Origin: Thermoanaerobaculia bacterium
GTDB lineage: Bacteria; Acidobacteriota; Thermoanaerobaculia; Multivoradales; UBA5704
Assembly: GCA_044226625.1 (NCBI GenBank)
Contig: JBGAGQ010000017.1
Coordinates: forward strand, 34,316 to 98,315
Direction of reading: 5' to 3'
DNA length: 64,000 bases
Every line of letters begins with the position of its first letter. Position 1 is the first letter of the stretch. The position numbers and the translations under genes are program-made. Shown here piece after piece: positions 4,038-24,571 of this stretch. The notes beneath the pieces are model-generated. The model was not told the origin of the DNA, made no database searches, and saw nothing but the letters and a program-made list of their open reading frames with translations.

Positions 4038-5847
4038 ACCGGAAAAGCGGCGCGAGGACCCGGCCGATCAGGCGTATCGGGAGGGGACCGACGCGATCCG
4101 CAATCATCCGCTGTTCCTGCCGCTCACCTTTCGCACGGACTTCTACCGCAACGTCCACCAAAACCTCTGCCCGCCGGGTGGTTGGGCGGTCGCCAACGTG
4201 CGGGGCCTCGTCTACTGCCACCCCAAGCGGCGGGCGAGCCCGGAGGAGTGGACCTGGGTGATCGGACACTGCCTGCTCCACTATGGATTCGGGCATTTTC
4301 AGACTCGAGCCCGTCCCGACCTTTGGAACGTTGCCTGCGACTTCTTCATCGACCGCTTTCTCGCCGATTTGAAGCTGGGCCGGCGCCCCGCGGAGATCCC
4401 CGAGCTGAAGCTTCCACCCGGGGCGCCCGCGACCTCGGAAAACGCGCTGTACGACTGGCTGTTCGAAAACGGCGTTCCCGTGGAGCTTCGCGGCGGCGGG
4501 ACCGCCGGACCGGGAGCGTTGGACCTTTCGTTCGAGGTGGACCGATGGCGGGGCAAGCTCACGCCATACGGCAAAGAGTGGAGGGACGCGCTGGGCGCGG
4601 GGCTGCGCAACGCCGTCGCAGCGGCGGTCGACGTCGCGGGAGGTAAAGCGGCGAGCCTCACCGGGGCTACGGGGCCGACCACTCCTGCCCAACGCGGAAG
4701 GTCTTGGTTCATGACCCGCTATCCGCTGCTGGGAGCGCTCGCGGCCTCGTTCCGGCTGATCGAAGACGGCGAGGTCTGCCGCCGCCTGGACGTCCACGTG
4801 GCGGCGGTCGACGCCGAGGCGCGCGAGCTCTACGTCAACCCGCAGATCGGCATGGACGACGGCGAGGCTCGCTTCGTGATGGCTCACGAGCTGCTGCACG
4901 TTGGCCTCCGCCATCAGGCTCGCTGCCAGGGGCGCGATCCGTTCCTCTGGAACGTCGCGTGCGACTACGTCATCAATGCCTGGTTGGTGGAGATGGACGT
5001 GGGACGGCCGCCGGCTTTCGGAGTGCTGCTCGATCCGGAGCTGAAGGGGCTTTCGGCGGAAGCGATCTACGACCGGATCGTCGGCGACCTCCGCCGGTTT
5101 CGGAAGATTTCGACCTTGCGCGGTGTGGGCGTCGGCGACATCCTTCCGGGCAGAAACCCGCGCTGGTGGCAGGTAGGGGAGGGGGTGGCGCTCGATGAGC
5201 TCTACCGCAACTGCCTGACCCAGGGGCTGCTCTGGCACCGCGACCAATGTCGCGGTCTCCTCCCCGCCGGCCTGATCGAAGAGATCGAGGCGCTCGCGCA
5301 GCCGGTGATTCCGTGGGACGTGCAGCTTGCGCAGTGGTTCGATCACCGGTTCCCGCCCAAGGAGAAACGGCGCACCTATGCCCGTCCGAGCCGGCGCCAG
5401 ATGGCGACTCCCGATCTGCCGCGACCTCGCTTGGCGCCCCTCGACGACGGCTCGATCCGCACCTTCGCGGTGGTCCTCGATACCTCCGGAAGCATGGATC
5501 GGAAGCTCCTGGCCAAGGCGCTCGGCGTGATCGCGAGCTATGCCGCCTCGCACGAGGTCGACGCCGTGCGGCTCGTGTTCTGCGACGCCGCCGCGTACGA
5601 CGAGGGCTACGTCCGTGCGGAGGACATCGCGGGCCGGGTGCGGGTCAAGGGCCGCGGCGGCACCGTCCTCATGCCCGGTATCGAGCTCCTCGAGAAGGCC
5701 CCGGATTTTCCGCGAAGCGGGCCGATCCTGTTGATCACCGACGGTTTCTGCGACGACCTCACGATTCGCCGTGACCACGCCTATCTCGTGCCGGCGGGGA
5801 ACTCTCTGCCCTTCTCTCCACGAGGTCCGGTGTTCGGGATTTCGTGA
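4027..5847 (+). CDS. DUF2201-type putative metallopeptidase plus vWA-like domain protein
   Basis: HEXXH (AHELLH) followed by WNVACDY, plus a C-terminal MIDAS DTSGS, GRGGT and ITDG. GTG start overlaps the AAA gene end. Confidence 0.82.
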   Translation: MPRKPEKRREDPADQAYREGTDAIRNHPLFLPLTFRTDFYRNVHQNLCPPGGWAVANVRGLVYCHPKRRASPEEWTWVIGHCLLHYGFGHFQTRARPDLWNVACDFFIDRFLADLKLGRRPAEIPELKLPPGAPATSENALYDWLFENGVPVELRGGGTAGPGALDLSFEVDRWRGKLTPYGKEWRDALGAGLRNAVAAAVDVAGGKAASLTGATGPTTPAQRGRSWFMTRYPLLGALAASFRLIEDGEVCRRLDVHVAAVDAEARELYVNPQIGMDDGEARFVMAHELLHVGLRHQARCQGRDPFLWNVACDYVINAWLVEMDVGRPPAFGVLLDPELKGLSAEAIYDRIVGDLRRFRKISTLRGVGVGDILPGRNPRWWQVGEGVALDELYRNCLTQGLLWHRDQCRGLLPAGLIEEIEALAQPVIPWDVQLAQWFDHRFPPKEKRRTYARPSRRQMATPDLPRPRLAPLDDGSIRTFAVVLDTSGSMDRKLLAKALGVIASYAASHEVDAVRLVFCDAAAYDEGYVRAEDIAGRVRVKGRGGTVLMPGIELLEKAPDFPRSGPILLITDGFCDDLTIRRDHAYLVPAGNSLPFSPRGPVFGIS

Positions 5848-5855
5848 GGAAAGGC

Positions 5856-5888
5856 GAGCCGCCTCCCGCGCTCGACGGGAGGCGACTC
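5856..5888. terminator. Probable bidirectional terminator hairpin between convergent genes
   Basis: gag-c-cgcctcccg / cgggaggcg-a-ctc stem lying between the stop codons at 5847 and 5908. Confidence 0.5.
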
Positions 5889-5907
5889 GAGGAATCGATC
5901 GCCTCGG

Positions 5908-6219
5908 TCAGACCGTGATCGGAACCGCCACGGTCCAGTTCGCCCCGACCGCCGTGCTCGCCGGCGCGGTGTAGGTTTTGGGTACGCCGCCCGTGGTGAG
6001 GGTCACTTTGAACGCCTGCGGGCCGCCCCAGTTGATCCCCACCATGATGAGGGTGTAAGCACCCGGCGCCAGGATGGCCTGCGGACGGACCGTGTAGCTC
6101 ACGGGGTCGTTGTAGCCCGATTTGATGTGGCAAATCTCCGAGCTTCCGGCGGGAGTGGAGGCCAGGATGTAGAGCTCGTTGTCCGTGGCGCTGACTTCGA
6201 TCTTCGTGGTCTGGGACAT
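5908..6219 (-). CDS. Small hypothetical protein (103 aa, beta-strand rich)
   Basis: ATG start, GC-typical codon usage, protein-like composition (ATDNELYILA, MVGINWGG); fills the gap between two genes; no family recognised. Confidence 0.65.
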   Translation of the reverse strand: MSQTTKIEVSATDNELYILASTPAGSSEICHIKSGYNDPVSYTVRPQAILAPGAYTLIMVGINWGGPQAFKVTLTTGGVPKTYTAPASTAVGANWTVAVPITV

Positions 6220-6382
6220 GACGCGATCTCCGGTGCCCGTCCGTCGAGAATCATTTCTCGCCGGCTGACGGGGAAGATCCGGTCAGGCGTCCGATGGGTT
6301 AGTGCATTCCAAAGTCGAAAAGCCGCGCCGTCGTCGATCCTTCGGCTCCGGTCCGTGTCAAGATCGCTCCCGGAGGAGCACC

Positions 6383-7045
6383 ATGAAACCATCCACCAAG
6401 AAGGCGATTCGCTGGACGGCGATCGGTCTGGGCCTGGTCGTCGTCGCGGGCGTCACCTGGGCCTTGGTCACGATCGGACCGAGCAACGTCTGGGGAATGC
6501 TGCGCTACGACACGCGGAAAGAGGGGAAGCTTCAGGTCGGGGACTCGGCGCCCGATGTGGCGCTCCTCGCGCTCGACGGGAAGACGCGCGTCCACCTGCG
6601 CGAACGGGTGGGTGAACGGCCGCTCATCGTCATCTTCGGCAGCTACACCTGACCGCCTTTCCGGCGCTCGGTCGAGCGCCTCATCGATCTCCACCGCCGC
6701 TACGGCGACAAGGCCACGTTCGTCGCGGTCTACATCCGCGAAGCGCATCCGACCGACGAGTGGCAGATGGAAAGCAACGAAAAGGAAGACGTCTGCTATC
6801 CGCAGCCAAAGAGCACCGCGGCGCGGGTGGCGATTGCGAACGATTTCGTCCGCCGCTTCCACTTTCCAATCCCGCTTTTGGTCGACCCGATCGAGAATCC
6901 GGCAGACAAGGTCTACGCCGGTTGGCCCGAGCGCTTCTATGTGATCGACGAGCAAGGGACGATCGTCTACAAGGGAAAGACCGGCCCGTTCGGATTCCAC
7001 CCCGAAGAAGTCGACGCCTGGCTCGCGAAGCGGTTCGCGAGCTGA
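6383..7045 (+). CDS. Iodothyronine-deiodinase-like thioredoxin-fold selenoprotein (Sec at TGA 6650-6652), N-terminal membrane anchor
   Basis: ORFs 6302-6652 and 6767-7045 are in one frame across a single TGA, giving FGSYT-U-PPF, YIREAHPTDEW, LVD..EN...YAGWPERFYVI and YKGKTGPFGF, all deiodinase hallmarks. SD GGAGGA precedes ATG 6383. Confidence 0.88.
6663..6680 (+). promoter_or_regulatory. Candidate bacterial SECIS element
   Basis: ggcgctc-ggtc-gagcgcc perfect hairpin with a G/U-containing loop, starting 10 nt after the UGA. Confidence 0.7.
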
Positions 7046-7173
7046 AAACGTGGGAACTCCCGAGCCTTCGCCGAAGGACAGACGGACTGCGTCGGGCCTC
7101 GTTCCGGCTCGCCGATCTAGAATGAGCCAGGATCATCGCGGTTCGTTCCCCTTCGACCGAGGAGCCCTTCTTC

Positions 7174-8058
7174 ATGAGCGTCGACAGCTTCCGCTTTGCC
7201 TCGCCGTTGATCAAGCGGTACTACCAGATGAGCCGGGTGACGAGGGAGCTGCCGATTCCTTTCACACGGCCGAGAAAGCCCATCTCTGAAAGTCGGATCT
7301 CGCTCGTCACGACGGGGGGCCTCTACCGCCGTGGCCATGACGAGCCGTTCGATCAAGACCGCGAGCGGCGCGAGCCGGCGTGGGGCGATCCGAGCTACCG
7401 CGCGATCCCGACCGACGTCGACTTGGCGGAGCTCGCGGTGGGCCATCTCCACATCAACCCGGACGACCCCTCCGCCGATCCGAACATCCTCCTTCCGATC
7501 GACCGGATCAAGGAGCTCGTTGCGGACGGCAAAGTCGGCAGCCTCGGCGCCCGCGCCTACTCATTCATGGGATACCAGGGCTTTCCCGCCGATCCTTCCG
7601 GTTGGAAGAAGATCTATGGACCGGAGGTGCTCGCGGCGCTCCAGGCCGATCGCGTGGACGCCCTCCTGCTCACCTCGGCCTGACTGGAGTGCGCGGCCAA
7701 CGTGCCCGTGTTGGCACGTCTGTTCGAAGGCGGGGGGATCGCCACGGTCGTCGTGACCAACATGCCCTTCTGGGCCGAACGGGTCGGAACCCCGCGAACG
7801 CTCGCCGTCGAGTTTCCTTTCGGTCACCCGCTCGGCGGCACGCACGATCGAGAGATGCAGCGGCGGGTGATCCTGGCGGCGCTCGAGCTCATCGAGCGAG
7901 CGAGCGCGCCGGGGGAGATCGAAGAGTTTCCGGAGAAGTGGGGCGGCTCGGTCGCCGAAGGGCGACGGATCTCCGAGCCGCGAATCCCCGCGCCGATCAC
8001 CGCCCAGATGGGGCGCCACATCGGCGCGTTCCTGCGCGGCATGCGGCGTTCGGCCTGA
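7174..8058 (+). CDS. Glycine/sarcosine/betaine/proline reductase selenoprotein B-like (GrdB/PrdB family) protein, Sec at TGA 7681-7683
   Basis: ORFs 7174-7683 and 7702-8058 are in one frame across one TGA: ISLVTTGGLY, GDPSYRAIP, DPNILLPIDR, SFMGY, VDALLLTSA-U-LEC, PRTLAVEFPFGHPLG. Confidence 0.85.
7696..7719 (+). promoter_or_regulatory. Candidate bacterial SECIS element
   Basis: Two alternative stems just downstream of the UGA: acgtgcc-cgtgtt-ggcacgt (7700-7719) or gccaac...gttggc (7696-7715). Confidence 0.55.
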
Positions 8059-8152
8059 AGCGCGGCTTCGACTTCTCGCGGACGTTCGAGGCATCGATTG
8101 CGTATATCTCGGTACATTCGGGTTTTCCTGAGACTCCTTCCGGGGTGAGACG

Positions 8153-10861
8153 ATGAAAGTCACCTTCGCGTATGCCGCCTTCGTGCGCCGATTCCTCTTT
8201 GCCTTCTCGTTCCTCTTCTTCTGCGGCGCCACGCTTCTCGTTCCTTTCGCCCGCGCCGTTTCCGGCGCGGCCAGCTCATCCCTTTCCGTGGAGCCGGTGG
8301 CGGACCTCGGCCCCCGGCCGGCGATTTCCCTGCGGACTTTGCCGCGGGGCGCGGTGCGAGTCGGGGACCGGATCTTCTTCTTCGCCTCGGACGAGGTATC
8401 ACGTTCGGAGCTCTGGACCACCGACGGAACGCAGACGGGCACGCGGCGAGTCCTGGACGTCTCCGCCCTGGGAGTCGATTCCTCGATCGTCAGCGGGTCC
8501 GGACTGGTGGCGGCGCAAGGAAGGGCCTACTTTCAAACCCTCGATCCGCTCGCGGGCTTGCGGATCTGGAGGAGCGACGGCTCGCGAGAGGGGACGGTGC
8601 CGTTCTTCTCGTTGGATCTCTTCGATGACTTGGAACAGGCGCAGCCGCCGGAAGTCGTGACAGCGGCGTTGGGTCGTGATCTCCTATTCCTGAGGACGGG
8701 CGAGGAAGGGTTGTGGGACCTGTGGCGCACCGACGGCTCGCCGTCCGGGACTCGCCGTCTGGTGTCGCTGCCGGCTCCGTCGGCCTCGAGCTCCGGTGGG
8801 AGCCAGTTCTTTGAGGCGAAAGGGCGCGCGTATTTCGCGTTGCAAGATCAGTTCTCGACGGTGACGGATCTGTGGACGACCGCCGGAACGGCGGCCGGCA
8901 CGGTTCGGCTCGCTTCCGTCCCTTCGCTACCGTCGGCACCGCGCCAGCCGGTCGCCGTGGGGGGGCGTCTCTTCTTCATCGGTTTCGAAGCGGATCACGG
9001 ATTCGAGCTTTGGACCTCCGACGGCTCGCCCGCGGGTACGCGGATCGTCCGCGATCTGACGCCGGGACGGCGCAGAACGTTCTTCGAGCAGTTCTTTCCA
9101 GGACGGCGCGCCCTCTATTTCACCCTGTCAACGCCGAGCGGAAGGGAGCTTTGGCGGAGCGACGGCAGCGAAGCCGGCACTTCCCGCCTGTCGACGGTCG
9201 ACGGCACATTCGCCACACCCGCCGCGGAGGTCGAGGGCTCGCTGCTGTTCTTTCAGGCCGGCACGCTCTGGCGCGCGCGCGGGACGGGCTCACCCCAACG
9301 TCTCGCACCGCGCCTCGATCCGTGCGGCCCGTCGGTCCTGGCCGCGGGCCGGTTCGAATTCTTCGCCGACGACGGCGCACGCGGCTGCCGTCTCTGGCGG
9401 AGCGACGGCACCGCCGGGGGTACCGTCCCGGCGGTCGCTTCACCAACCGATGCGTCGGAGGGGACGCTGGTCGCGCTCGAAGATCGTTTGGTCCTCTTCT
9501 CTCCCAACCTGTCGGAAATCCAGGTGATCGCCGGGGACCGCGTCATCCCGCTCCGGCGTCCGCGGGCCGAGCTTCGGTCGGGCGCCCCGACGTTCCTGGT
9601 CCCTTGGCAGGGCGGCATCGCCTTCGCGGCGAACGGCACGTCCCGTCGCGCGATCTACCGCTCCAACGGCACGGCGACGGGAACCCTTCCGATCGCCTCC
9701 GGGGACCTCTGGTCGCCGCTCTTCCTCGGTCTGCCTAGCGACCTCATTCCGCTGGGTGAAAACCTCGCGTACCTGTCGCTCGATGGAGTCGGGTCTTCCG
9801 GTTCTTCACTTTCGGATACGAACCCAAAGCAGCTCGACGGCTATCCGGTCGGCGCCGCTCATGACGGGCGCGTGCTCTTTTCCTTCGCCGGCCGCGCCTA
9901 TTGGCTCACGCTCTCGGCCGACGGCCGCGACGTCGAGTTGCGAAGCACCGATGGCACGGAGGCGGGAACGGCGACCGTGAGCCGCCTCTTCGACGCGCCC
10001 GTCTCGCCGTTCGGTGGCGTGACCTACGTGCCCGATTTCTTCGTCGTCCGAGCTGAGCGCTACCTCGCCTTCTTTTTCCCGGTCAACCCCAACGAGGTGT
10101 GGACGACCGACGGTACGGCGGCCGGTACGCGGAAAGCGGTTCGCCTCGACGGGCTCCACGACGGCTTTCTGCACGCCGGGGTGGCGTTCGGCGACGGGAT
10201 GCTGTTCTCGACTTGGGCGACCCAATCGCAACCTCGGATCTGGCTCACCGACGACTCGGCCCAAGGCGCTCATCCGATCGACAACTTGGCTATCCATTCC
10301 CTCGATCAGCGCCTGACTGCCGTGGGCCGCCTCGCGTTCTTCACCGCGAGGGATGGGGGAGGGGTGGAGCTTTGGGCGACCGATGGAACACCTTCGGGAG
10401 CTCATCGGGTTCGCGACATCGCGTCCGGGCGGCGCGGCTCGTATCCGCGCGACCTGACCGCCGTGGGCGATCGGCTGTTCTTCACCGCCGACGACGGAGC
10501 TTCCGGCCGCGAGCTCTGGTCGAGCGACGGCACGGCCGCGGGGACCGTCCGAGTCGCCGATCTGGTTCCCGGCCCCGGGGGCTCCTTCCCGCAAAAGCTG
10601 GCGGCCGTTTTGACCGAAGGTCCCGCCCCCGTGCTCGCCTTCGCGGCGAACGACGGCGTTCACGGCCTGGAGCCCTGGCTCCTCGAAGCCGACGGAACGA
10701 GCGTCCGAATGTTGGCGGACGTGGCCCCCGGCTTCACCTCTTCGAGCCCGGCGGAATTCCTTTCCGTAGGCGCTCACCTCTATTTTGCCGCCACGACGCG
10801 TGCCACGGGACGGGAGCTTTGGAAGGCGACGCTCCAAGACCCTGAAAACACAACGCCTTAG
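8153..10861 (+). CDS. Secreted ELWxxDGT repeat protein (beta-propeller-like)
   Basis: Hydrophobic N-terminus and many repeats: ELWTTDGT, ELWTSDGS, ELWRSDGS, ELWATDGT, ELWSSDGT. Confidence 0.85.
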   Translation: MKVTFAYAAFVRRFLFAFSFLFFCGATLLVPFARAVSGAASSSLSVEPVADLGPRPAISLRTLPRGAVRVGDRIFFFASDEVSRSELWTTDGTQTGTRRVLDVSALGVDSSIVSGSGLVAAQGRAYFQTLDPLAGLRIWRSDGSREGTVPFFSLDLFDDLEQAQPPEVVTAALGRDLLFLRTGEEGLWDLWRTDGSPSGTRRLVSLPAPSASSSGGSQFFEAKGRAYFALQDQFSTVTDLWTTAGTAAGTVRLASVPSLPSAPRQPVAVGGRLFFIGFEADHGFELWTSDGSPAGTRIVRDLTPGRRRTFFEQFFPGRRALYFTLSTPSGRELWRSDGSEAGTSRLSTVDGTFATPAAEVEGSLLFFQAGTLWRARGTGSPQRLAPRLDPCGPSVLAAGRFEFFADDGARGCRLWRSDGTAGGTVPAVASPTDASEGTLVALEDRLVLFSPNLSEIQVIAGDRVIPLRRPRAELRSGAPTFLVPWQGGIAFAANGTSRRAIYRSNGTATGTLPIASGDLWSPLFLGLPSDLIPLGENLAYLSLDGVGSSGSSLSDTNPKQLDGYPVGAAHDGRVLFSFAGRAYWLTLSADGRDVELRSTDGTEAGTATVSRLFDAPVSPFGGVTYVPDFFVVRAERYLAFFFPVNPNEVWTTDGTAAGTRKAVRLDGLHDGFLHAGVAFGDGMLFSTWATQSQPRIWLTDDSAQGAHPIDNLAIHSLDQRLTAVGRLAFFTARDGGGVELWATDGTPSGAHRVRDIASGRRGSYPRDLTAVGDRLFFTADDGASGRELWSSDGTAAGTVRVADLVPGPGGSFPQKLAAVLTEGPAPVLAFAANDGVHGLEPWLLEADGTSVRMLADVAPGFTSSSPAEFLSVGAHLYFAATTRATGRELWKATLQDPENTTP

Positions 10862-11490: not shown

Positions 11491-11525
11491 GCGCGGTGCC
11501 TCCCCTCCGGCACCGCGCTTTTTTT
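11491..11525 (+). terminator. Rho-independent terminator
   Basis: gcgcggtgcc/ggcaccgcgc 10-bp stem followed by seven T. Confidence 0.8.
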
Positions 11526-11663
11526 AGGCCCCTTTCCAGCGCAAGCGCTTCTTCGCGTTCGTGCTATCCTCCCCGCACTACTTTCGGTAGAGCTTTTCGG
11601 ATCCCTCGTCCTTCTCGACGCCCGCTCGGGCGCCAAGGTTGGAGATTTCCTGGGAGGTCTGCG

Positions 11664-14600
11664 ATGGCGTTCAAGCGGTGGCTCTGGTCCGTCTTCTTTC
11701 CGCTGTTCGTCGCCTTGACGCTTCCCGCGTTCGGGCCGGTCACCGAGGTCGGCGCGCAGCCCGCGATTCCCTCGGGCGACATCTGCTCGGCGGACCTCCC
11801 GCTTCCCAGCGCTTTTCCCGCGAACAAGTCGGAGTACGAGATCATCCTCGGCCGCTTTTTCCGGGCGAAGTGTTACGAGAAGCTCGGTTGGCCGCACGAT
11901 AAGCAGTTGCGGCCCACAGGGCCGACGGTGGCGGCGCTCGCCGCCGGAACGACCGATCCTCACATGCCGCCCGCCTGGCAGACGACCACGCTCGGCACCC
12001 ACACCACCGTGGTCATCTACTACTCGCCGGACGTCTTTCGCTGGATGTGCGAGACCGAGGCGCGGCACGATCCGAAATTCGTCGCCCAGTGCAAGGTGCG
12101 CTGCCCGACCTGCAGGCTCGAATCGGAAGGTACGGTTGCGCCGATCGCGCCGATCGCCGACGGCTCGATGATCATCAAGCTGATGTACGGCGCGACATCG
12201 GCCGAGGATCTCGAGAACCCGCAGGTGCCGACCGGCGAGGCGAACATGTTCGCCCACATGGTCAAAGACGCGAAGGCCTCGAAGGACGGTTGGTTCTGGG
12301 GCAACTGGGATCCGCAGGCGACCGAGTTCTCGCAGCTCGACTGGCCGCCGCCGGTGAACCTGCCGTATCCGTGGATGGGCTTCGGCTACTACTGCATGAA
12401 CTGCCACGCCTCGGCCAAAGCCGAGTCGACGTTCTCGGATCTCAACAACGTGCTCGGCGACCCGGACACGTTCACCAAGTTCTATTTCCAGGACCAGCCG
12501 CCGATTCCTACGGTCGGGGCCAAAGAGCCGCCACCGATCGAGATGAAGTCGGCGCACGAGCGGTTCGAGGCGCTCCAGAACCTTCAGGCGCTCGGCACCG
12601 GCCCGCTGTGGAACGAGGTTCCCTGGCCGAACTCGGCGGTCAACCGGGTGAGCCAGCCCTCTTCGACCTATCGGCAGAGCTTCCTTTCGACCTACGGCGC
12701 GAAGCGGATCGTGCCTCCCGATTCGAAGACGATCCTGCCGCTCTACATGCCGCCTGAAGTTTACGACCACCGATTCCCCGGGCCCGTGGCGCCGCCGCCG
12801 TTCATGACCTCCGATCAGTGCGTCGGCTGCCACGCGGCGGGCTCGACCGGTATCCACTTCGACATGACGGTCCAGAAGCCCGATCAGCCGGCGTTCACCA
12901 ACCTGGTGAACATCGCCGAATACGGCGAGTGGCGCAGCTCGCCGATGGGGCTCGGTGGGCGCGATCCGATCTTCTTTTCCCAGCTCGAAACGGAGCAGGC
13001 GGCGCACCCCGCGCTCGCGAAGCTCGCGCCCGACCTCTGCCTCCATTGCCACGGCGTCATGGGGCAGCGGCAGTTCTGCCTCGACCAGTTCCCCGACCGC
13101 GAGAAAGGGAACGCCGTCTGCAACAACACGGACCTCCTGGGGTTGAACCAGGACTCGCAGCCGATCGTGCCGCGGCGCCTGTTCACGCGCGAGCAGGTGA
13201 ACGCCATCCCGTTCCGGGCGAAGACCGAACAGGACTTGCAGAACGCCAAATACGGCGGTCTCGCGCGCGACGGGATTTCGTGCACCACCTGCCACCACAT
13301 CGAGATCGATCCGAAGACTCCCATCGGCCACACCTTCACCGGCGATTTCCGGACCGGTCCGGACGACGTCCTCCACGGGCCGTTCGACAAGCCGCAGCAG
13401 GTGCCGATGGATCACACGCTCGGCAGCAAGCCGATCGAGTACCCGCTGATCCGCTCGTCGAAAGTCTGCGGTAGCTGCCACAGCGTCGTGCTCCCCGTGT
13501 TCGACGGCGACAAGCCGTGGGTGCGCCCCGGCGGCAAAAAGCCGGAGATCATCATCGAGCAGGCGACCTATCCGGAGTGGGTCTTCAGCGACTTCCGCGA
13601 CGACGGGCCGACGCCGCGCTCCTGCCAGAGCTGCCACATGGCGTCCTCCTACCCGGGGCTGCCGTCGCCACTTACGAGCAAGATCGCCTCGATCCAAGAG
13701 GCGAGCAACATGCCGCAGACGGAGAACCGTCTTCCGCAGTCCGACATCGACCTCCAGCCGCGCTCGCCCTACGGCCGGCACACGCTGGTCGGTCTGAACG
13801 TCTTCTTCAACCAGTTCGCCCAGCAGTTCCCCGACATCCTCGGCATTCGGATTCAAGATCCGATGCTCGGTGGCACCGGCATCGCGCCGCTCACCACCAC
13901 CTACAACTCGATGATTCAGCAGGCGGACACGGGGACCGCGACGGCGGAGGTGACGGGCGTGCGGCAGACGGCGGATGCGCTCGTGGCGGACGTCAAAGTC
14001 ACGAACCTCGCCGGGCACAAATTCCCCTCCGGCGTCGGCTTCCGTCGCGCGTTCCTGACCTTCGAGGTGCTCGATTCGGCGGGCAACGACCTTTGGATCT
14101 CCGGCCGCAGCACGGACGACGGCGTGATCGTCGGGCCGGACGGCTCGCCGATCGCGGGCGAGTTCATGTGGGGCAACGAGTGCACACCAGTCCCGGGCAA
14201 GGACCAGAAAACCCAGCCGCATTACGAGACGATCACCCGGCAGGATCAGGTCCAGATCTATCAGGAGCTGGTACGCGACCCGCGCGGCCGGCTCACCACG
14301 AGCTTCCTTTCGCTCGCGAACGAAGTGAAGGACAACCGCCTCCTACCGCGGGGCTGGACGCCGAGCGTCCAGCTGGCGGAGATGGACGGCCTCGGCAGCC
14401 CCAAGCTCTCCGCCGCGGCTCTCGTCCACCGCGTGCTCCCTGACCTGCCCGACGGCAAAGGCGGGACGGTCGACGACCCCTGGTACAAGCCGGTCTCTGA
14501 AGGGGGCAAAGGCGGGGGAGGGGACGAGCTGGTCTACGCCGTGCCGCTCAAGGATCTCAAAGGAACCGCGGTCTCCGTGCGCGTCACCCTCTACTACCAG

Positions 14601-14819
14601 TCGATTCCGCCGTTCTACCTCCAGGACCGCTTCTGCTCGACCCCGAACCGGCCGGACACCTCACGCCTCTTCTTCCTCGCCGGGCACACGGACCTCTCCG
14701 GAACCCGGGCCGAAGGGTGGAAGCTCTCGGTGGTCTCGTCGGGGAGGGTGGCGGTGGAAACGAAGGCGGCGTCCGTCGAGCCTCCGCGAGAAGCGAGGCG
14801 TGGGGGTGGGAGTCGGTAG
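11664..14819 (+). CDS. Large exported multiheme c-type cytochrome with an N-terminal cytochrome P460-like domain
   Basis: SD GGGAGG and a signal peptide; six CxxCH (CMNCH, CVGCH, CLHCH, CTTCH, CGSCH, CQSCH); P460-like GSMIIK...MVK...GWFW...C..CH; C-terminal VTNLAGHKFPSG domain. Confidence 0.82.
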   Translation: MAFKRWLWSVFFPLFVALTLPAFGPVTEVGAQPAIPSGDICSADLPLPSAFPANKSEYEIILGRFFRAKCYEKLGWPHDKQLRPTGPTVAALAAGTTDPHMPPAWQTTTLGTHTTVVIYYSPDVFRWMCETEARHDPKFVAQCKVRCPTCRLESEGTVAPIAPIADGSMIIKLMYGATSAEDLENPQVPTGEANMFAHMVKDAKASKDGWFWGNWDPQATEFSQLDWPPPVNLPYPWMGFGYYCMNCHASAKAESTFSDLNNVLGDPDTFTKFYFQDQPPIPTVGAKEPPPIEMKSAHERFEALQNLQALGTGPLWNEVPWPNSAVNRVSQPSSTYRQSFLSTYGAKRIVPPDSKTILPLYMPPEVYDHRFPGPVAPPPFMTSDQCVGCHAAGSTGIHFDMTVQKPDQPAFTNLVNIAEYGEWRSSPMGLGGRDPIFFSQLETEQAAHPALAKLAPDLCLHCHGVMGQRQFCLDQFPDREKGNAVCNNTDLLGLNQDSQPIVPRRLFTREQVNAIPFRAKTEQDLQNAKYGGLARDGISCTTCHHIEIDPKTPIGHTFTGDFRTGPDDVLHGPFDKPQQVPMDHTLGSKPIEYPLIRSSKVCGSCHSVVLPVFDGDKPWVRPGGKKPEIIIEQATYPEWVFSDFRDDGPTPRSCQSCHMASSYPGLPSPLTSKIASIQEASNMPQTENRLPQSDIDLQPRSPYGRHTLVGLNVFFNQFAQQFPDILGIRIQDPMLGGTGIAPLTTTYNSMIQQADTGTATAEVTGVRQTADALVADVKVTNLAGHKFPSGVGFRRAFLTFEVLDSAGNDLWISGRSTDDGVIVGPDGSPIAGEFMWGNECTPVPGKDQKTQPHYETITRQDQVQIYQELVRDPRGRLTTSFLSLANEVKDNRLLPRGWTPSVQLAEMDGLGSPKLSAAALVHRVLPDLPDGKGGTVDDPWYKPVSEGGKGGGGDELVYAVPLKDLKGTAVSVRVTLYYQSIPPFYLQDRFCSTPNRPDTSRLFFLAGHTDLSGTRAEGWKLSVVSSGRVAVETKAASVEPPREARRGGGSR

Positions 14820-17396: not shown

Positions 17397-17540
17397 GCGA
17401 CGTGATTCTCCAGAAAAAGGCCATTCCTCGGCCGGTTCACCCTCCGCGTTCCCTCTGCCCGCGGTTCAGCCGCGGTGGGGCCGCGAGGGGACAGCCGCTT
17501 GAATTCGAACCCGGTGGATTCTATCGCTAGAGGCCTCGGT

Positions 17541-17570
17541 TTGACCTTCCGCCCTGGGCCGCCATATCCT
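17541..17570 (+). promoter_or_regulatory. Putative sigma70 promoter of pyrR-pyrB-pyrC
   Basis: TTGACC-18 nt-TATCCT, ending 18 nt before the pyrR ATG. Confidence 0.45.
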
Positions 17571-17588
17571 CCGCCGGGTTCCAACGAC

Positions 17589-18149
17589 ATGCAGAAAGCT
17601 CTCACCCCGAAAGCGACGATCCTCGAAGCCCCTGAAATGGCGCGGATCGTCCGTCGGATGGCGGGGGAGATCGCGGAGAAGAACCGCGGCGTCAAGGACC
17701 TCCTTCTGATCGGCATCCGCACGCGCGGCGTGCCGCTCGCCGAGTCGCTCGCCCAGGAGATCGGCCGGATGGAGGGGCACGCGGTTCCGACCGGCGTGCT
17801 CGACATCACCCTCTACCGGGACGACCTGTCGACGATCGGGCAGCACCCCCTGGTCAAAGAGACCCACCTGCCGCCGATCGACGGCGCGGTCGTGGTCCTT
17901 TGCGACGACGTGCTCTATACCGGGCGGACCGTGCGCGCCGCCCTCGATCATCTGGTCGACTACGGCCGGCCGCGCGCCGTGCAGCTTGCCGTGCTGGTCG
18001 ACCGGGGGCACCGGGAGCTGCCGATCCAGGCGGATTTCGTCGGCCGCGTCGTGCCGACCTCGGCCGACGAGGTGGTCGAGGTCGCTTTCCCGTCGACTGA
18101 CGGCGGTGCCGAGCAGGTCCGCATCCTCGAACGGACCTCCGCTTCCTGA
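17589..18149 (+). CDS. pyrR: Bifunctional pyr operon regulator/uracil phosphoribosyltransferase
   Basis: [49 protein letters not shown]. Confidence 0.95.
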
Positions 18150-19111
18150 TGTCGACCGAAACGCCCCCTTCGCCGGTTCGCTGGACCCGGAAGGACCTGC
18201 TCGGGATCGCCGAGCTGTCGCCGGAGGAGATCCAGCTGATCCTGGATACGGCGCTCTCGCTCCAGGCGATCGAGAAGCGGCCGATCAAGAAGGTCCCGAC
18301 GCTCCGCGGAAAGACGGTGATCAACCTCTTCTTCGAGGCGTCGACCCGAACCCGGTCGAGCTTCGAGATCGCGGAGAAGCGCCTCTCGGCCGATACGCTC
18401 AACTTCTCGGCCTCCGGTTCCGCGCTCGAGAAGGGCGAGAGCCTGATCGACACGGCGCTCAACCTCGAAGCGATGGCGCCGGATATGATCGTGATCCGGC
18501 ACAAACATCCGGGAGCTCCCCACCTGCTCGCCCGGCGCCTCAAATCGGGGGTGGTGAATGCCGGCGACGGCGCGCACGAGCACCCGACCCAGGCGCTGCT
18601 CGACGCGTTCACGATCCTCCAGAAGAAGGGGCGGATCGCGGGGCTCAAGGTGGCGATCGTCGGTGACATCGGCCATAGCCGCGTGGTGCGCTCGAACGTC
18701 CACCTGCTCACCAAGCTCGGCGCGCGCGTGGTGGTCGCCGGCCCGCGGACGCTGATGCCGGTCGAGATGGAGAAGATGGGAGTCGAGGTCTGCTACTCGC
18801 TCGACGAGGCGTTGCGCGACGCCGACGTGGTGATGATGTTGCGCATCCAGATCGAGAGGGGAGGCGGTACGGCTTTCCCGTCGGTCCGCGAATATTTCCA
18901 GATGTTCGGCCTGTCCAAGGCGCGCCTGTCGCTCGCCAAGGACGACGCGATCATCATGCACCCCGGGCCGATGAACCGCGGGGTGGAGATTTCGAGCGAG
19001 GTGGCGGACGGTCCCTGGTCGGTGATCCTCGAACAGGTGGCCAACGGGGTCGCGGTCCGAATGGCGGTGCTCTACCTGCTGTCCGGCGCGCATGAGGAGA
19101 TCGGTCGATGA
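18149..19111 (+). CDS. pyrB: Aspartate carbamoyltransferase catalytic subunit
   Basis: [35 protein letters not shown]. Confidence 0.96.
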
Positions 19112-20391
19112 GCAGGGCGTTGATCCAGGGAGGTCGTCTGGTCGATCCGAGCCAGGGGCTCGACGGGCGGCTCGACCTGTTGATCGAGGACGGCGTGGTG
19201 GCACGGATCGACGAGCGGATCGAACCGCTGGAAGGCGTCGAGCCGTTCGACGCCACCGGCCTGGTTGTCTCGCCCGGTCTGATCGACATCCACGTCCACC
19301 TGCGCGAGCCGGGCTTCGAATACAAAGAGACCGTTCAAACGGGGACCCGCGCGGCGGCGGCCGGCGGGTTCACTTCCGTCGCCTGCATGGCGAATACCGA
19401 TCCGGTGCACGACAATCGCTCGGTCACCGGCCACATCCTCTCGGAAGCCGAGCGCTGGGGTTACGCGCGGGTCTATCCGATCGGCGCAATCAGCAAGGGG
19501 CTGCTGGGCGTCGAGCTCGCCGAGATCGGCGAGATGGTAAACGCCGGCGCGGTCGCGGTGTCGGACGACGGCAAGCCCGTGATGAACGCCGAGCTGATGC
19601 GCCGGGCGTTGCTCTACGCCCAGCATTTCGGCATCCCGGTGATCCAGCACGCCGAGGACCTGCATCTTTCGGGCAAAGGCGTGATGCACGAAGGGGAGTG
19701 GTCGACCCGGCTCGGCCTCGAAGGAATTCCGGGATCGGCCGAGGACGTGATGGTCGCGCGCGACCTGATCCTCCTCGAAGATTCGGGCGGCCGCTACCAC
19801 GTGGCGCACCTCTCCACCGCGCGAAGCCTGGAGCTCGTGCGGCGCGCGAAGGCCAAGGGCATTCCGGTCACCTGCGAGGTGACACCCCACCATCTCGTGC
19901 TCACCGACGAAGAGGTGGCGAAGACCTCGTTCTCCACCCAGACCAAGATGAAGCCGCCGCTCCGCTCCGAGCGCGATCGCGTGGCCATGATCGAGGGGCT
20001 GGTCGACGGTACGATCGACGCGATCGCCTCGGATCACGCGCCGCATCACGCCGACGAGAAAGAAGTCGAGTACAACTGCGCCCCGTTCGGCATCCTGGGC
20101 CTTGAGACGACCCTGCCGCTCTGCCTCACCCGTCTGGTCCACGCCGGGGTGATCTCGCTCTCCCGCTTCGTCGAGCTGCTCACCATCGGCCCGGCTAAAG
20201 CGCTGAACCTCCCCGTCGGCTCGCTCGCGCCAGGGAAACCCGCCGACGTGACGATCTTCGACCCCGACCGTGAAGTCGTGATCGAGCCCGAATCCTTCCG
20301 CAGCAAGAGCCGCAACACCCCTTTCGGAGGCTGGAAGCTCAAGGGAGCGCCGGTCGCAACGTTTCTCTCGGGGCGGCGGGTCGTCCTGTAA
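19108..20391 (+). CDS. pyrC: Dihydroorotase
   Basis: [39 protein letters not shown]; located in the pyr operon. Confidence 0.94.
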
Positions 20392-20594: not shown

Positions 20595-22172
20595 TCAGAC
20601 CTGTCGCGGTAACCGCACCTCGATCGTCGCCCCACCCATCCGTCCAGAGAGGGCGCGGACGTTACCTCCGTAGCCTTCGACGATCGCGCGGACGATGGCG
20701 AGGCCGAGGCCGGAGTGGGCGCTTGCGGCGCGGCCTTCGGGGCGGGAGGAGAAGAAGCGTTCGAAGACGCGTTCGCGGTCGGCCTCCGGGATTCCTGGGC
20801 CCTGGTCGGAGATTTCGACGCCGACTTGGGTGTCGGAGGAGCGAAGTCGGATCGCGATCGTTCCCTGCGGCGGCGAGAAGCTCGCGGCGTTGTCGAGGAG
20901 GTTTTCGAACGCCTGGGCAAGGCGATCGGGGCTCGCGCGGGTCCAGTGCTTCTCGTCGGGGATGTCCAGCTCGAACCGTAGCGTCGGATAGCGCAGCTTG
21001 AATCCTTCGACCAGGCCGGCGAGGAGATCGCTCAACACCAGTCGCTCGGTCGGCTCGGCCTCGAGGCGGGCGTCGATCGCGGTGATCTCGGCGACGCTTC
21101 CGAGCAATCGTTCGAGGCGGGAGATCTCGGCGAGGGCCAGGTGAGAGAGCCGGACCCGCTCGGCGGGCTCGCTTTCGCCGTCGAGCAGCTCGATCGCGTT
21201 GCGGATCGCCGCGAGCGGGTTCTTGAACTCGTGCGCCACGTCGGCTGCGAACGATTCGATGAAGCCAAGGTGCCCTTGGAGACGCGCGGTGAGCGCTTCG
21301 AGCGCGCGAGCGAGCTCGCCGATCTCGTCCCGCCGTTTCGATCCTCGGAACCGGCCGCGCAGTCGGCCGCGGCGGTCGACCAAGTCGGCGGCCTGGGACG
21401 AAAGCTGTGCCACCGGCCGGCTGATCGTCGTCGCGAGCAGGAAGGAGAGGAGGATCGCCGCACCGATCGAGACGAGAAGGATTTCGAAGATCCGGAGGCG
21501 CACCGCGTAGAGAGAGCGCAGTACGCGCACGGTCGATTGGGTGACGACGACGGCGCCGATCACTTTCCCGCCTCCCCGAATCGGAATCGCGCTGTGCAGG
21601 GTGAGCGACCGTTGGCCGGGCGAACGCTCGACCCCTCCGCCGTAGCGGCCGGAGAGCGCGGCGGAGAGCGCCGTGGCGAGGCCGCTCTTCCGGGTCTCGG
21701 CACGCGGCGATCGCGTCGAGGGCGCCGCGTTCCGGGCCGCGAAGAGCGGCTCGGTGAAGCGGAAGATCGCCGCCCCCAGGCGGTAGACGAGGCTGCGCCG
21801 CTCGGGAGAGTCGCGCGCTGCCTCTCCTCCCGGATCGCTCGCATAGCGATCGGCGGGCGGCGGCTTCGCAGGAGCGCCCCGGCTCGAATCCGCGAGCAAG
21901 CCGCGGGCGTCGTAGACGCGCAGGCGGCTTTCGGTCCGCGCTTCGAGCCGGCCGAGCAACGCCCCGGCGTCGGTCGGTGTCAGCTCGGCCCTCCCGCCGA
22001 GCGCGGCCGAGACGAGACGCCCCTGCTGCACCATGGCCTTCTCCTGCTGGGTGAGCAGTTCCCGTTCGTAGAGGTCGAGGTAGAACAGGCCCGAAACGGG
22101 GAGGAACACGAGCAGAAGGTTGAACAGGAGCAGCCGCGTCGAGAGGCGCGACACCAGGCGCGGTCGCATCAT
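20595..22172 (-). CDS. Membrane sensor histidine kinase (ChvG/CreC-like, HAMP-HisKA-HATPase)
   Basis: Two TM segments, HAMP RRDEIGELA, H-box AHEFKNPL, N-box ENLLDNA, DQGPGI, GLGLAIV. Confidence 0.9.
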   Translation of the reverse strand: MMRPRLVSRLSTRLLLFNLLLVFLPVSGLFYLDLYERELLTQQEKAMVQQGRLVSAALGGRAELTPTDAGALLGRLEARTESRLRVYDARGLLADSSRGAPAKPPPADRYASDPGGEAARDSPERRSLVYRLGAAIFRFTEPLFAARNAAPSTRSPRAETRKSGLATALSAALSGRYGGGVERSPGQRSLTLHSAIPIRGGGKVIGAVVVTQSTVRVLRSLYAVRLRIFEILLVSIGAAILLSFLLATTISRPVAQLSSQAADLVDRRGRLRGRFRGSKRRDEIGELARALEALTARLQGHLGFIESFAADVAHEFKNPLAAIRNAIELLDGESEPAERVRLSHLALAEISRLERLLGSVAEITAIDARLEAEPTERLVLSDLLAGLVEGFKLRYPTLRFELDIPDEKHWTRASPDRLAQAFENLLDNAASFSPPQGTIAIRLRSSDTQVGVEISDQGPGIPEADRERVFERFFSSRPEGRAASAHSGLGLAIVRAIVEGYGGNVRALSGRMGGATIEVRLPRQV

Positions 22173-22262: not shown

Positions 22263-22976
22263 TCAATCAGGCTCCCGAAGCCGATAGCCGAGGCCGTAGA
22301 CGGTCTCGATCGCCTCGGCTCCCGCAGGGTCGGCTTCCGCGAGCTTCTTGCGCAGCCGCTTGACGTGGCTGTCGATCGTCCGCTCGGAGACGTAGGCGTC
22401 GTAAGGATAGCCCTCCTGCATCAGCTGGGCGCGCGTCTTGACGTGCCCCGGCCGCCGGGCAAGGGCGGCAAGCAGGGTGAACTCGGTGACCGTGAGGTCG
22501 AGTGCCGTCTCGCCCGAGCGCGCTCGGTAGCGTTTGGGATCCAGCGTGAGCGCGCCGACGTGGATCAGCTGCTCGGGCTCTTCGGGCTCCGCGGCGTGGG
22601 CCGCGCGGCGCAGCAGGACCTTCACCCTCGCGACCATCTCGCGGAGCGAAAACGGCTTGCAGAGGTAGTCGTCCGCCCCCAGCTCCAGGCCGAGCACCCG
22701 GTCGAACTCCTCGTCTCGCGAGGTGACGAAGAGAATCGGCAGACGTTCCGAATGCGCACGCAGCCGGCGGCAGAGCTCGCGCCCGTCGAGGCCCGGCAGG
22801 AGGATGTCGAGGATCGCCAGGTCCGGAAGCCCTCGCTCGAAAGAGGTCCAGGCGGCCAGACCGTCGGCGTACGGTTCGACCCGATAGCCTTCGCGGGCGA
22901 GCGCCGTGCGCATCGTCTCGCGCACGCCTTCCTCGTCCTCGACCAGAGCGATCCGGGCTCCGCTAGGGGGTGTCAT
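22263..22976 (-). CDS. OmpR-family response regulator (ChvI/CreB-like)
   Basis: LVEDE, ILDILLP, GADDYLCKPF, winged helix RTIDSHVKRLRKK, IETVYGLGY. Confidence 0.92.
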   Translation of the reverse strand: MTPPSGARIALVEDEEGVRETMRTALAREGYRVEPYADGLAAWTSFERGLPDLAILDILLPGLDGRELCRRLRAHSERLPILFVTSRDEEFDRVLGLELGADDYLCKPFSLREMVARVKVLLRRAAHAAEPEEPEQLIHVGALTLDPKRYRARSGETALDLTVTEFTLLAALARRPGHVKTRAQLMQEGYPYDAYVSERTIDSHVKRLRKKLAEADPAGAEAIETVYGLGYRLREPD

Positions 22977-23149
22977 GTCGCGAAACTCTAGCCCAGCCTC
23001 GCCGCGATGGCCCTCGCGCCACGATTTCGCCATGATCTTCCTCGGCGATGCCATCCATCGGCCGCACCACGTCCTTCGCGCTTCGCTCGAATGGCCGCGA
23101 ACCGGGCGCCGGCCTTTGGTGCCGCGCGTCAGATCGGAGGGACTCTGAG

Positions 23150-24571
23150 ATGTTCGAAACGGAACGGCCGCGCTCTTGGCGCGACTCGAAATTGATCAAG
23201 GTGATGGGCGTCGGGATTCTGGTGCTGCTGCTCCTGATTCCGCTCGCCATGGTGCACGGCCTGGTGAGCGAACGGCAGCAGCGCCAGCTGTCGGTCGAGC
23301 AGGAGCTCGCTTCCGTCTGGGGTGGCGCCCAGAAAATCGGCGGACCGGTGCTCACGGTTCCCTACAGCTCGCTCTGCGACGTGCAGTCGACGGCGCCGAA
23401 CGGGCAGATGACTCACGTGCTCGAGAACTGCGAGAAGCAGGCGCATTTCCTTCCGGAGACGTTGTCGATCGAGGGGCGGGTCGTGCCGGAAGTCCGTTCG
23501 CGCGGAATCTTCGACGTGGTCGTCTACCGGACCGAGCTCAAGATCTCGGGAACGTTCGCGCCTCCGAACTTCGACGAGCTCGCGCGCGACGCCACGGCGG
23601 GGGCGGGGGGGCCGGTCGGGGAGCCCCACAGGGAGCGCGCGTCCCTCGGAATGGGGATCCCCGATCTCCGTGGCATCCGGGGCCGGGTCGACCTCGACTG
23701 GCACGGAAGGAAGGTTGCGTTCTCGCCCGGCGCGGCGGATCCGAATCTCTGGGCCACGGGGCTCCGGGCGCCGCTCGCCGTCGTCGCGGGCGACCTCACC
23801 AAGGCCCCCGACGGTGGCCGCATTCCGTTTGCCTTCACGATCAATCTGGCCGGCTCCAGCCGGCTCGATGTGCTGCCGTTCGGTCGGCAGACCCACGTCC
23901 GGCTCGCCTCGTCCTGGGGGAGCCCGGGGTTCACCGGCGCGTTCCTCCCTGAGACGCGGCAGGTCGGGAAAGACGGCTTCAACGCCACCTGGAACGTCTC
24001 GTACTACGGCCGGAGCTATCCGCAACTCTGGTCTTCGGAACAGACCCCCGAGCTCTCCTCGGCGATCAACGGCTCGGCGTTCGGTGTCGACTTCGTCCAG
24101 CCGGTCGACGTCTATCAGCAGACCGAGCGGTCGGTGAAATACGGCGCGCTCTTCCTGGTGCTCACCTTCGTCACCTTCTTCCTCTTCGAGTTGTTCCAAC
24201 CGATCCGGGTCCACCCGGTGCAGTACCTGATGGTCGGCTCGGCGCTCTGCCTGTTCTACGTGTTGTTGCTGTCGGTCGCCGAGCAGCTTTCGTTTGCGAT
24301 CGCGTACCTGATCGCTGGAGGGGCGACGGTGGCGCTGCTGGGCGCCTACGCCGGAGCGGTGCTCAAGAGCGCAGCCCGCGCGACGGTTTTCGCGGGGGTC
24401 CTCGCGATGCTCTATGCCTACCTCTATGTCCTCCTCCAGGCGGAGGACTACGCGCTTCTGCTCGGCTCGGTCGGCCTGTTCCTGATCCTCGCTCTGGTGA
24501 TGTTGATCACGCGCAAGGTCGATTGGTACGGCGGGACGCCGTCGGCGGCCGGAGCGACGAGAGCGGTTTAG
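23150..24571 (+). CDS. creD: Cell envelope integrity protein CreD
   Basis: LLLIPL, WGGAQKIGGP, RSRGIF, SW.SPGF.GAFLP, ERSVKYG, HPVQYLMVG, LLQAEDYALLLGS, TRKVDWY. Confidence 0.92.
   Translation: MFETERPRSWRDSKLIKVMGVGILVLLLLIPLAMVHGLVSERQQRQLSVEQELASVWGGAQKIGGPVLTVPYSSLCDVQSTAPNGQMTHVLENCEKQAHFLPETLSIEGRVVPEVRSRGIFDVVVYRTELKISGTFAPPNFDELARDATAGAGGPVGEPHRERASLGMGIPDLRGIRGRVDLDWHGRKVAFSPGAADPNLWATGLRAPLAVVAGDLTKAPDGGRIPFAFTINLAGSSRLDVLPFGRQTHVRLASSWGSPGFTGAFLPETRQVGKDGFNATWNVSYYGRSYPQLWSSEQTPELSSAINGSAFGVDFVQPVDVYQQTERSVKYGALFLVLTFVTFFLFELFQPIRVHPVQYLMVGSALCLFYVLLLSVAEQLSFAIAYLIAGGATVALLGAYAGAVLKSAARATVFAGVLAMLYAYLYVLLQAEDYALLLGSVGLFLILALVMLITRKVDWYGGTPSAAGATRAV

Follow-up and report, generated by a model that had tools for sequence, protein, structure and literature searches.

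A deiodinase-like selenoprotein gene with an in-frame TGA and a candidate SECIS hairpin in a Thermoanaerobaculia genome

Bacterial relatives of the iodothyronine deiodinases are known from sequence analysis. Deiodinase-like selenoproteins, together with homologues that have cysteine and with bacterial selenocysteine insertion sequence (SECIS) elements, were described from the Sargasso Sea in 2005 by Zhang, Fomenko and Gladyshev, and a redox function other than thyroid-hormone deiodination was suggested for them (PMC1088965). Reviews of 2022 and 2026 list the "deiodinase-like protein" among the computationally predicted prokaryotic selenoproteins and give it no known function (PMC9312934, PMC13188914). 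A functional study of a bacterial member was not found in the literature searched, as judged by titles and abstract openings. The gene analyzed here lies at 6383–7045 on the plus strand of a 64,000-nucleotide stretch of DNA (the window) from a Thermoanaerobaculia bacterium (contig JBGAGQ010000017.1 of assembly GCA_044226625.1). It is concluded, with a probability of about 0.88, that the gene is intact and encodes an N-terminally anchored, thioredoxin-fold selenoprotein of the iodothyronine deiodinase family, in which UGA is read as selenocysteine (Sec, U). This estimate covers the identity of the gene and its Sec decoding; the substrate is outside its scope.

As judged from its sequence, the gene belongs to the bacterial family of deiodinase-like selenoproteins. 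Like the family described in PMC1088965, it has a PF00837 domain, an in-frame TGA that aligns with cysteine in homologues, and a putative SECIS just downstream with a small G-containing apical loop, and its function is presumed to be redox. Unlike the family motif UxxC tabulated in PMC9312934 and PMC13188914, the motif of the window protein and its clade is U-P-P-F, with no cysteine at +3. The described members come from marine metagenomes, whereas the present clade is found mainly in metagenome-assembled genomes (MAGs) of Thermoanaerobaculia and other Acidobacteriota; PMC13188914 contains none of the terms "Acidobacteri", "Thermoanaerobaculia" or "soil". A short transmembrane anchor and a clade-specific cysteine, Cys138, also distinguish the clade from the described bacterial members. 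Four features of the clade may not have been reported before: the U-P-P-F motif, a Sec codon kept without exception in its Acidobacteriota MAGs, a Cys138 that goes with Sec, and a SECIS that determines the peptide RRSVER. They refine a known category rather than open a new one, and the gene itself is unremarkable as a member of a selenoprotein family already catalogued.

The vertebrate deiodinases Dio1–3 (structures 4tr3 and 9h48) have, like the window protein, a membrane-anchored thioredoxin fold with a deiodinase-specific loop. They share with it the motifs G-S-x-T-U-P-P-F, Y-I-x-E-A-H-P-x-D-x-W and (F/P)-E-R-x-Y-V-I, at 30–32% identity and template modelling (TM) scores of 0.79–0.82. The SECIS of Dio1–3 is in the 3' untranslated region, whereas that of the window gene would lie inside the coding region. 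The periplasmic thioredoxins TlpA, ResA and DsbE also combine an N-terminal anchor with a thioredoxin-fold domain, but they have CxxC, lack the deiodinase loop and are 13–24% identical to the window protein. The NCBIfam family NF038285 (deiodinase_rel) matches the window protein strongly (E 2.2e-60) through its C-terminal catalytic half, at profile positions 177–338 of 347, with a score of 204.9 bits, below the cutoff of 250. The match is confined to that half; the window protein lacks the family's N-terminal half and its architecture is therefore shorter.

Decoding of the in-frame TGA and the candidate SECIS hairpin

From the ATG at 6383 to the stop codon TGA at 7043–7045, the plus strand holds a single frame that is broken solely by the TGA at 6650–6652. 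Open reading frame (ORF) calling with translation table 11 cuts the gene in two (6302..6652 and 6767..7045). Translation of 6383–7045 with TGA as U gives a 220-residue protein with U90 at 6650–6652 and the motifs FGSYT-U-PPF, YIREAHPTDEW and YAGWPERFYVI. The broken ORF, the 220-residue readthrough product and all three motifs had been described in the original prediction, made from the sequence alone, and all are present. The same prediction called the gene hidden, which is true for ORF callers but not otherwise, the bacterial family having been in print since 2005 (PMC1088965). The start at 6383 is backed by close homologues that begin MKPS or MKPA, and a Shine-Dalgarno-like GGAGGAG can be read at 6372..6378 (plus strand), 4 nt upstream of the ATG. 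The two stop-to-stop halves, in the same frame, have coding-type composition, with G+C fractions at third codon positions (GC3) of 0.78 and 0.82 and at second positions (GC2) of 0.54 and 0.42. Translation, composition and the PF00837 match together define the coding sequence.

Related loci were sought in genome contigs, with one genome per species, and the best 80 of 569 confirmed relatives were kept. These 80 come mostly from MAGs of Thermoanaerobaculia, Holophagales and other Acidobacteriota, with a few from Polyangia, Planctomycetota and Pseudomonadota, and the top five have 78–84% identity. TGA is present at the homologous codon in all 80, inside FGS[YF]T-U-PPF or LGSFT-U-PPF, and the U-P-P-F motif is found in 81/81 sequences (the window and the 80 loci). 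Amino acids are strongly conserved, and the frame is open, on either side of the TGA across the related loci. Distant homologues carry cysteine at the U90 site, which is the Cys/Sec pairing that the original prediction had proposed looking for. Comparison, rather than experiment, thus indicates that UGA 6650–6652 is decoded as selenocysteine. The original view of a genuine Sec-encoding gene is borne out by the 80/80 TGA codons and by the deiodinase-family sequence and fold matches given below.

Two other explanations of the TGA were considered, and both are highly improbable. If it were a true stop, the locus would have to be explained as a pseudogene, as a sequencing error or as a pair of small genes. 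ORF calling does split the gene, and Sec machinery was not seen in the window. However, TGA in 80/80 relatives, with frame and amino acids conserved on both sides, excludes a sequencing error or pseudogene, the cases in which a TGC or TGG at 6650 would be expected. Coding-type GC3 in both halves, covariation in the downstream hairpin and the presence of a second, adjoining TGA-interrupted gene also argue against a true stop, which the comparative evidence comes close to refuting. The other explanation is a genome-wide reassignment of TGA to tryptophan or glycine (code 4 or 25), for which the tryptophan at this site in some database homologues could be cited. These homologues come from short metagenome contigs, for which the gene caller may have picked code 4, and cysteine, not tryptophan, is present in 115 of the 133 site-covering representatives described below. 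The genome has 65–71% G+C, which also speaks against such a code. Moreover, TGA terminates 13 of the 24 window genes, this gene and its PrdB/GrdB-like neighbour included; a reassigned code is therefore excluded by stop-codon usage in the window. A screen of the window for TGA-interrupted genes returned, beyond the two selenoprotein genes, five same-frame junctions, of which four fall between distinct genes and the fifth belongs to an antisense frame of a nonribosomal peptide synthetase (NRPS) gene.

A bacterial SECIS has a small apical loop containing G and is located just 3' of the UGA (PMC1088965). The hairpin GGCGCUC-GGUC-GAGCGCC at 6663–6680 (plus strand) starts exactly 10 nt 3' of the UGA and has a 7-bp stem with the loop GGUC at 6670–6673; it fits a bacterial SECIS. 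The GU of the loop is approximately 21–23 nt from the U of the UGA, near its place in E. coli fdhF. A perfect 7-bp hairpin starting 5–20 nt downstream follows only 15 of the 1048 TGA triplets in the window (1.4%; both strands, any frame). Alignment A2 compares the window with the 80 loci, without gaps, over 48 nt around the TGA (76 distinct sequences). In it, stem columns 17–23 pair with columns 28–34 in 86.7% of 532 cells, and both partners have changed in three of the seven stem pairs (16 cells). Covariation scores 0.120, compared to 0.040 +/- 0.008 for shuffled alignments, a value reached in 0/500 shuffles. Three stem pairs are invariant and are uninformative for covariation. When the 3' partner is slid by 1 to 3 columns, pairing drops to 31–67% of cells.

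Double changes from G-C to C-G and A-U are found at two synonymous third positions (10 cells). In five loci (L060, L061, L065, L077 and L078) a U-A pair is replaced by G-C, with Ser to Ala and Glu to Ala, so that RRSVER becomes RRAVAR. On this comparison, RRAVAR is an RNA-level compensatory change visible as a paired amino-acid change, and the SECIS RNA also appears to dictate the encoded peptide RRSVER. At codons +5 to +8 (CGC, TCG, GTC and GAG) the third positions have entropies of 0.19, 0.10, 0.10 and 0.00 bits, compared to 0.9–1.5 bits at four-fold codons elsewhere in the stretch (Pro +1/+2, Arg +15/+20, Thr +25, Ala +31 and Pro +33). The loss of synonymous variation across these relatives coincides exactly with the stem and loop, a pattern that is independent of covariation. 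The shared ancestry of the relatives inflates the significance of the shuffles, whereas the slid controls and the synonymous-site pattern are free of that weakness. The conserved element is a 6-bp stem (6664–6669 with 6674–6679, the core spanning 6664–6679) with the GGUC loop. Of the "perfect hairpin" originally predicted 10 nt after the UGA, the position and the pairing in the window sequence stand, but only five or six of the seven pairs are conserved. The covariation and the synonymous-site constraint make the predicted SECIS look functional.

Several observations weigh against a SECIS at this site or against Sec decoding. The hairpin is short, and its outermost pair is formed in just 25 of the 76 distinct sequences. 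The isolated hairpin folds at -14.3 kcal/mol, but the 54-nt stretch around it is no more stable than its dinucleotide shuffles (z = -0.29; 68/200 shuffles fold as well), and the minimum free energy structure of that stretch differs from the SECIS hairpin. Single-sequence folding is weak evidence for the hairpin, and the shuffle result is unsurprising at 65–71% G+C; because the folding energy was indistinguishable from shuffles, the comparative tests were relied on. The whole window gave no Rfam match at the gathering threshold, and no Rfam model covers the hairpin. Genes for selA, selB, selD and tRNA-Sec were not found within the 64-kb window, in which ARAGORN detected no tRNA genes; the same program, run on 60 of the 80 related loci, detected three tRNAs of ordinary type but none for Sec. 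In favour of Sec decoding, Table 2 of PMC1794560 includes the Acidobacteria among the phyla with selenoproteins (three families, four proteins).

Family, fold and active site

The catalytic domain comprises residues 45–217 (6515..7033, plus strand), which match Pfam PF00837 (T4_deiodinase) with E 5.7e-36 and 124.4 bits against a cutoff of 27. The Redoxin (37.1 bits, cutoff 26.6) and AhpC-TSA (30.5 bits, cutoff 26) models barely pass their cutoffs and are far below PF00837, and there is a weak match to the NCBIfam model of ResA. In a phmmer search of the PDB, the closest solved structures by sequence were mouse Dio2 (9h48, E 2e-22) and Dio3 (4tr3, E 7.6e-22). A model predicted with AlphaFold2 from a 44-row alignment has a predicted local distance difference test (pLDDT) score of 88 and a predicted TM score (pTM) of 0.80, with a helix at residues 3–31 and a less confident loop at approximately 121–140. 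Foldseek placed the same two structures at the top of the PDB matches of this model, with E 4.4e-14 for 9h48 (TM 0.82 relative to the target) and 1.3e-13 for 4tr3 (0.79). The next matches, at approximately 1e-8 and about five orders behind Dio2 and Dio3, are DsbE, ResA and further membrane-associated thioredoxins, and peroxiredoxin (Prx)/Bcp and thiol peroxidase structures are also among the matches. The deiodinase-specific insertion is kept and its loop is highly conserved. The deiodinase-like identity originally proposed is thus supported by PF00837, by the sequence and fold matches to Dio2 and Dio3, and by FGSYT-U-PPF.

The N-terminal membrane anchor, also part of the original prediction, corresponds to a 19-residue hydrophobic segment at residues 13–31 (AIGLGLVVVAGVTWALVTI; 6419..6475, plus strand), with a mean Kyte-Doolittle hydropathy of 2.28, within the predicted helix 3–31. 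Homologues whose N-termini are covered have a similar segment. In the 24 sequences with at least six N-flank residues, of 43 scored, the N-flank contains on average 3.4 K/R and 0.1 D/E, compared to 2.5 K/R and 1.0 D/E in the 15 residues after the segment. The positive-inside rule therefore mildly favours an N-terminus in the cytoplasm and a catalytic domain outside. This charge bias suggests weakly that the catalytic domain faces the periplasm.

A proton relay is described around Sec130 of Dio2, consisting of Ser127, Thr129, Tyr157, Glu160, His162 and His182 (PMC11592359). With an offset of 40, the relay and Sec map to S87, T89, U90, Y117, E120 and H122 of the window protein, all of which are conserved in the clade. 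Five of the six relay residues are therefore retained (S87, T89, Y117, E120 and H122). The remaining active-site comparisons speak against deiodinase-type chemistry specifically. The second relay histidine, His182 of Dio2, aligns to the invariant Pro142, and proline is found at this position in 106 of the 133 site-covering representatives. Neither the distal nor the proximal cysteine of the vertebrate enzymes is present, as Cys205 of Dio2 aligns to Ile163 and Cys168 of Dio3 aligns to Tyr88. The substrate clamp, Arg275 of Dio3 or Lys241, is replaced by Thr200. The roles of these cysteines and of the clamp residue are described in part in PMC11592359. The topology is deduced from a modest charge bias alone, and no conserved neighbour in the 80 loci or the window indicates a substrate or a reductant. 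The absence of the second histidine, the clamp residue and the vertebrate cysteines argues, at the sequence level, against a simple equivalence with the thyroid-hormone deiodinases. Thyroid hormones are not expected as substrates here, the topology may be opposite to that of Dio1–3, and the window protein has an extra cysteine, Cys138, in the loop.

The wider family consists mostly of cysteine forms. A word-indexed protein search gave 848 matches. Among the best 120 of these, 111 are C-terminal pieces of 121–161 residues that cover 48–56% of the query at 66–83% identity; these pieces are ORFs cut at the TGA. The other nine are long, with cysteine at the Sec site in four and tryptophan in five; the tryptophan is probably TGA translated under code 4 on short contigs. 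An exhaustive search of representatives clustered at 50% identity gave 4191 matches at E<=0.001, 1513 at <=1e-10 and 93 at <=1e-30, and many of these representatives are 400–900 residues long with the domain at their C-terminal end. Pairwise alignment of the best 150 of the 4191 found cysteine at the active site in 115, tryptophan in six, serine in six and another residue in six; 17, all short fragments, do not cover the site, which leaves the 133 site-covering representatives cited above. The clade of the window protein is, by this comparison, a Sec clade.

Cys138 (6794..6796, plus strand), the sole other cysteine of the window protein, lies in the deiodinase-specific loop and is a candidate resolving residue. 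Its conservation in alignment A3 is 90% or higher. Among the best 150 representatives, cysteine is present at position 138 in four of the six tryptophan forms, which are probably TGA forms, but in only three of the 115 cysteine forms. This distribution fits a partner residue that is specific to Sec.

Candidate activities

The mechanism proposed here begins with the hairpin 10 nt past the UGA, the 6-bp core and GGUC loop of which would serve SelB and Sec-tRNA(Sec) as a bacterial SECIS. In the protein, the Sec90 selenolate would be held by a network of the conserved residues Ser87, Thr89, Tyr117, Glu120, His122 and Trp127. Sec90 would then attack the electrophilic atom of a small substrate beneath the deiodinase-specific loop, and Cys138, the cysteine specific to the clade, would resolve the oxidised selenium together with an external thiol reductant. 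In the deiodinases, this loop contributes to thyronine recognition and to the proton relay (PMC11592359). Because the loop is retained, a small aromatic or other small-molecule substrate seems more likely than a protein disulfide. For the same reason dehalogenation is ranked slightly above peroxide reduction, followed by disulfide exchange. Reductive removal of halogen from a halogenated aromatic is thus a tentative first choice of substrate class, made from sequence features. The original prediction had named a reductive dehalogenase or a peroxidase as candidate activities.

Reduction of peroxide is a possible but uncertain alternative. Sec90 would reduce H2O2 or organic hydroperoxides, as in peroxiredoxins or glutathione peroxidases, and would be recycled by Cys138 or an external thiol. 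The matches to Redoxin and AhpC-TSA, the Prx/Bcp and thiol peroxidase structures among the fold matches, and the restriction of Cys138 to the Sec clade are in line with a Prx-like enzyme, and a Prx-like motif and module are described in the deiodinases themselves (PMC11592359). However, the deiodinase model scores 124 bits against 30–37 for the peroxidase-type models, the deiodinase-specific loop is kept and highly conserved, and AhpF, thioredoxin reductase or another peroxide-stress partner was not found nearby. The peroxidatic motif of Prx has T-x-x-C spacing, whereas the active site here is T-U. Less probable again, and on balance unlikely, is a membrane-anchored, periplasm-facing thiol/selenol-disulfide oxidoreductase of the TlpA/ResA/DsbE type, acting on protein or low-molecular-weight disulfides outside the membrane; in its strict form the enzyme would act on proteins and not on a small molecule. 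The shared architecture, the rank of DsbE, ResA and the membrane-associated thioredoxins directly after Dio2 and Dio3, the weak ResA match and a charge bias that places the domain outside would all suit such an enzyme. It is hard to reconcile with the U-P-P-F site, which contains neither CxxC nor UxxC, and with the conserved Dio-type relay residues, and the surroundings showed no cytochrome-maturation or DsbD/CcdA genes.

The most specific form of the dehalogenase proposal concerns the ecology of the clade and must be regarded as doubtful. In soil Acidobacteriota (Thermoanaerobaculia and relatives), in which the Sec form would be almost universal, the protein might be a periplasm-facing selenoenzyme that reductively dehalogenates natural organohalogens, for example iodinated, brominated or chlorinated phenolics, with a selenenyl-sulfide cycle between Sec90 and Cys138 that replaces the vertebrate cysteines. 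If this were true, the protein would be a free-living counterpart of the thyroid-hormone deiodinases, and halogen cycling in soil would have a selenium-dependent route that has so far gone unrecognised. Any action on halogenated aromatics would have implications both for how the deiodinases arose and for halogen turnover in soil. Concrete, testable hypotheses for this large family follow from three features of the clade: its strict Sec retention, the link of Cys138 to Sec and the conservation of the deiodinase loop.

The adjoining selenoprotein gene and other window features

The gene directly downstream (7174–8058, plus strand) is 128 nt away and is itself interrupted by a TGA, at 7681–7683, where ORF callers split it into 7174..7683 and 7702..8058. 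Readthrough gives a 294-residue PrdB/GrdB-like protein with T-S-A-U-L-E-C (UxxC), which matches PF07355 and TIGR04483 (PrdB; 118.7 bits, far under the cutoff of 300). A hairpin, ACGUGCC-CGUGUU-GGCACGU, is located at 7700–7719, 16 nt after this UGA. Among the best 120 homologues, 116 are cut at the same codon and stop after covering 57% of the query; 111 have a length of exactly 169 residues. Full-length PrdB/GrdB-like homologues have cysteine or tryptophan at the TGA codon. Environmental selenoproteins of the PrdB-like type have been catalogued (42 sequences in Table 1 of PMC1088965). The presence of this second selenoprotein gene speaks well, if indirectly, for Sec decoding by the organism. 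With this gene and with TGA kept in 80/80 relatives, neither of the findings that the original prediction named as refuting was encountered in the window and the related loci.

Standard gene callers split or shorten both selenoprotein genes, and fragments make up 111 of the best 120 and 116 of the best 120 database relatives, respectively. Hundreds of database relatives are likewise fragmented, and Sec-aware annotation of Acidobacteriota genomes is therefore needed.

The pairing of the two genes is not conserved, as the PrdB-like gene is present in 0/80 deiodinase-like loci within the fetched flanks. A tblastn search with nine flanking window proteins against the 80 loci found no shared neighbour, with the lone exception of an ELWxxDGT-repeat match in one locus (L003). 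De novo clustering of neighbouring ORFs from 81 sources (the window and the 80 loci) gave a DUF2127 membrane protein (42), a Ser/Thr kinase (41), an FmdA/AmdA-like protein (35) and a response regulator (34). The window contains none of these four families, and no obvious reductant or substrate-pathway gene is among them; the clusters are taken to reflect synteny within the lineage or large families of paralogues, without functional linkage. No operon-level link is therefore proposed. Scans of 5800–8300 found no promoter-like site and three terminator-like sites, compared to 2.2 expected from shuffles, which is uninformative; the interval that separates the selenoprotein genes has none of the three. 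Upstream, on the same strand, are genes for a PCMT methyltransferase, two SPFH/Band-7 proteins, an AAA ATPase and a DUF2201 metallopeptidase-like protein, and a 103-residue ORF without a match lies on the opposite strand.

Downstream of the selenoprotein genes, 8153–10861 (plus strand) encodes a 902-residue ELWxxDGT-repeat protein with seven repeats (TIGR04534, E 6e-114). It is followed at 11496–14819 (plus strand) by a gene for a 1107-residue cytochrome P460-domain protein, which has a very weak match to the multihaem (seleno)protein ExtKL (E 2.7e-4, far under the cutoff). A creBC-like pair is encoded on the minus strand (histidine kinase 20595–22172, response regulator 22263–23054), and the gene for the inner-membrane protein CreD (23048–24571; PF06123, E 8.5e-150) is divergent from it.

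The NRPS gene is a single ORF encoding 6600 residues at 35797–55599 (plus strand), with approximately six adenylation (AMP-binding), seven condensation and six carrier (PP-binding) matches, and it sits in a strong positive GC skew of 0.10–0.12. A 706-residue fusion of a D-isomer-specific 2-hydroxyacid dehydrogenase with a D-Ala-D-Ala ligase is encoded at 32601–34721 (plus strand), directly preceded by a class-V aminotransferase gene (31404–32594). This combination has a possible resemblance to VanH-VanA-type depsipeptide, or D-lactate, ligation. Pyrimidine biosynthesis is represented by an orotidine 5'-monophosphate decarboxylase gene at 34820–35704 (plus strand) and by genes at 17475–20391 for a PyrR/phosphoribosyltransferase-like protein, aspartate carbamoyltransferase and dihydroorotase, all of them ordinary housekeeping genes.

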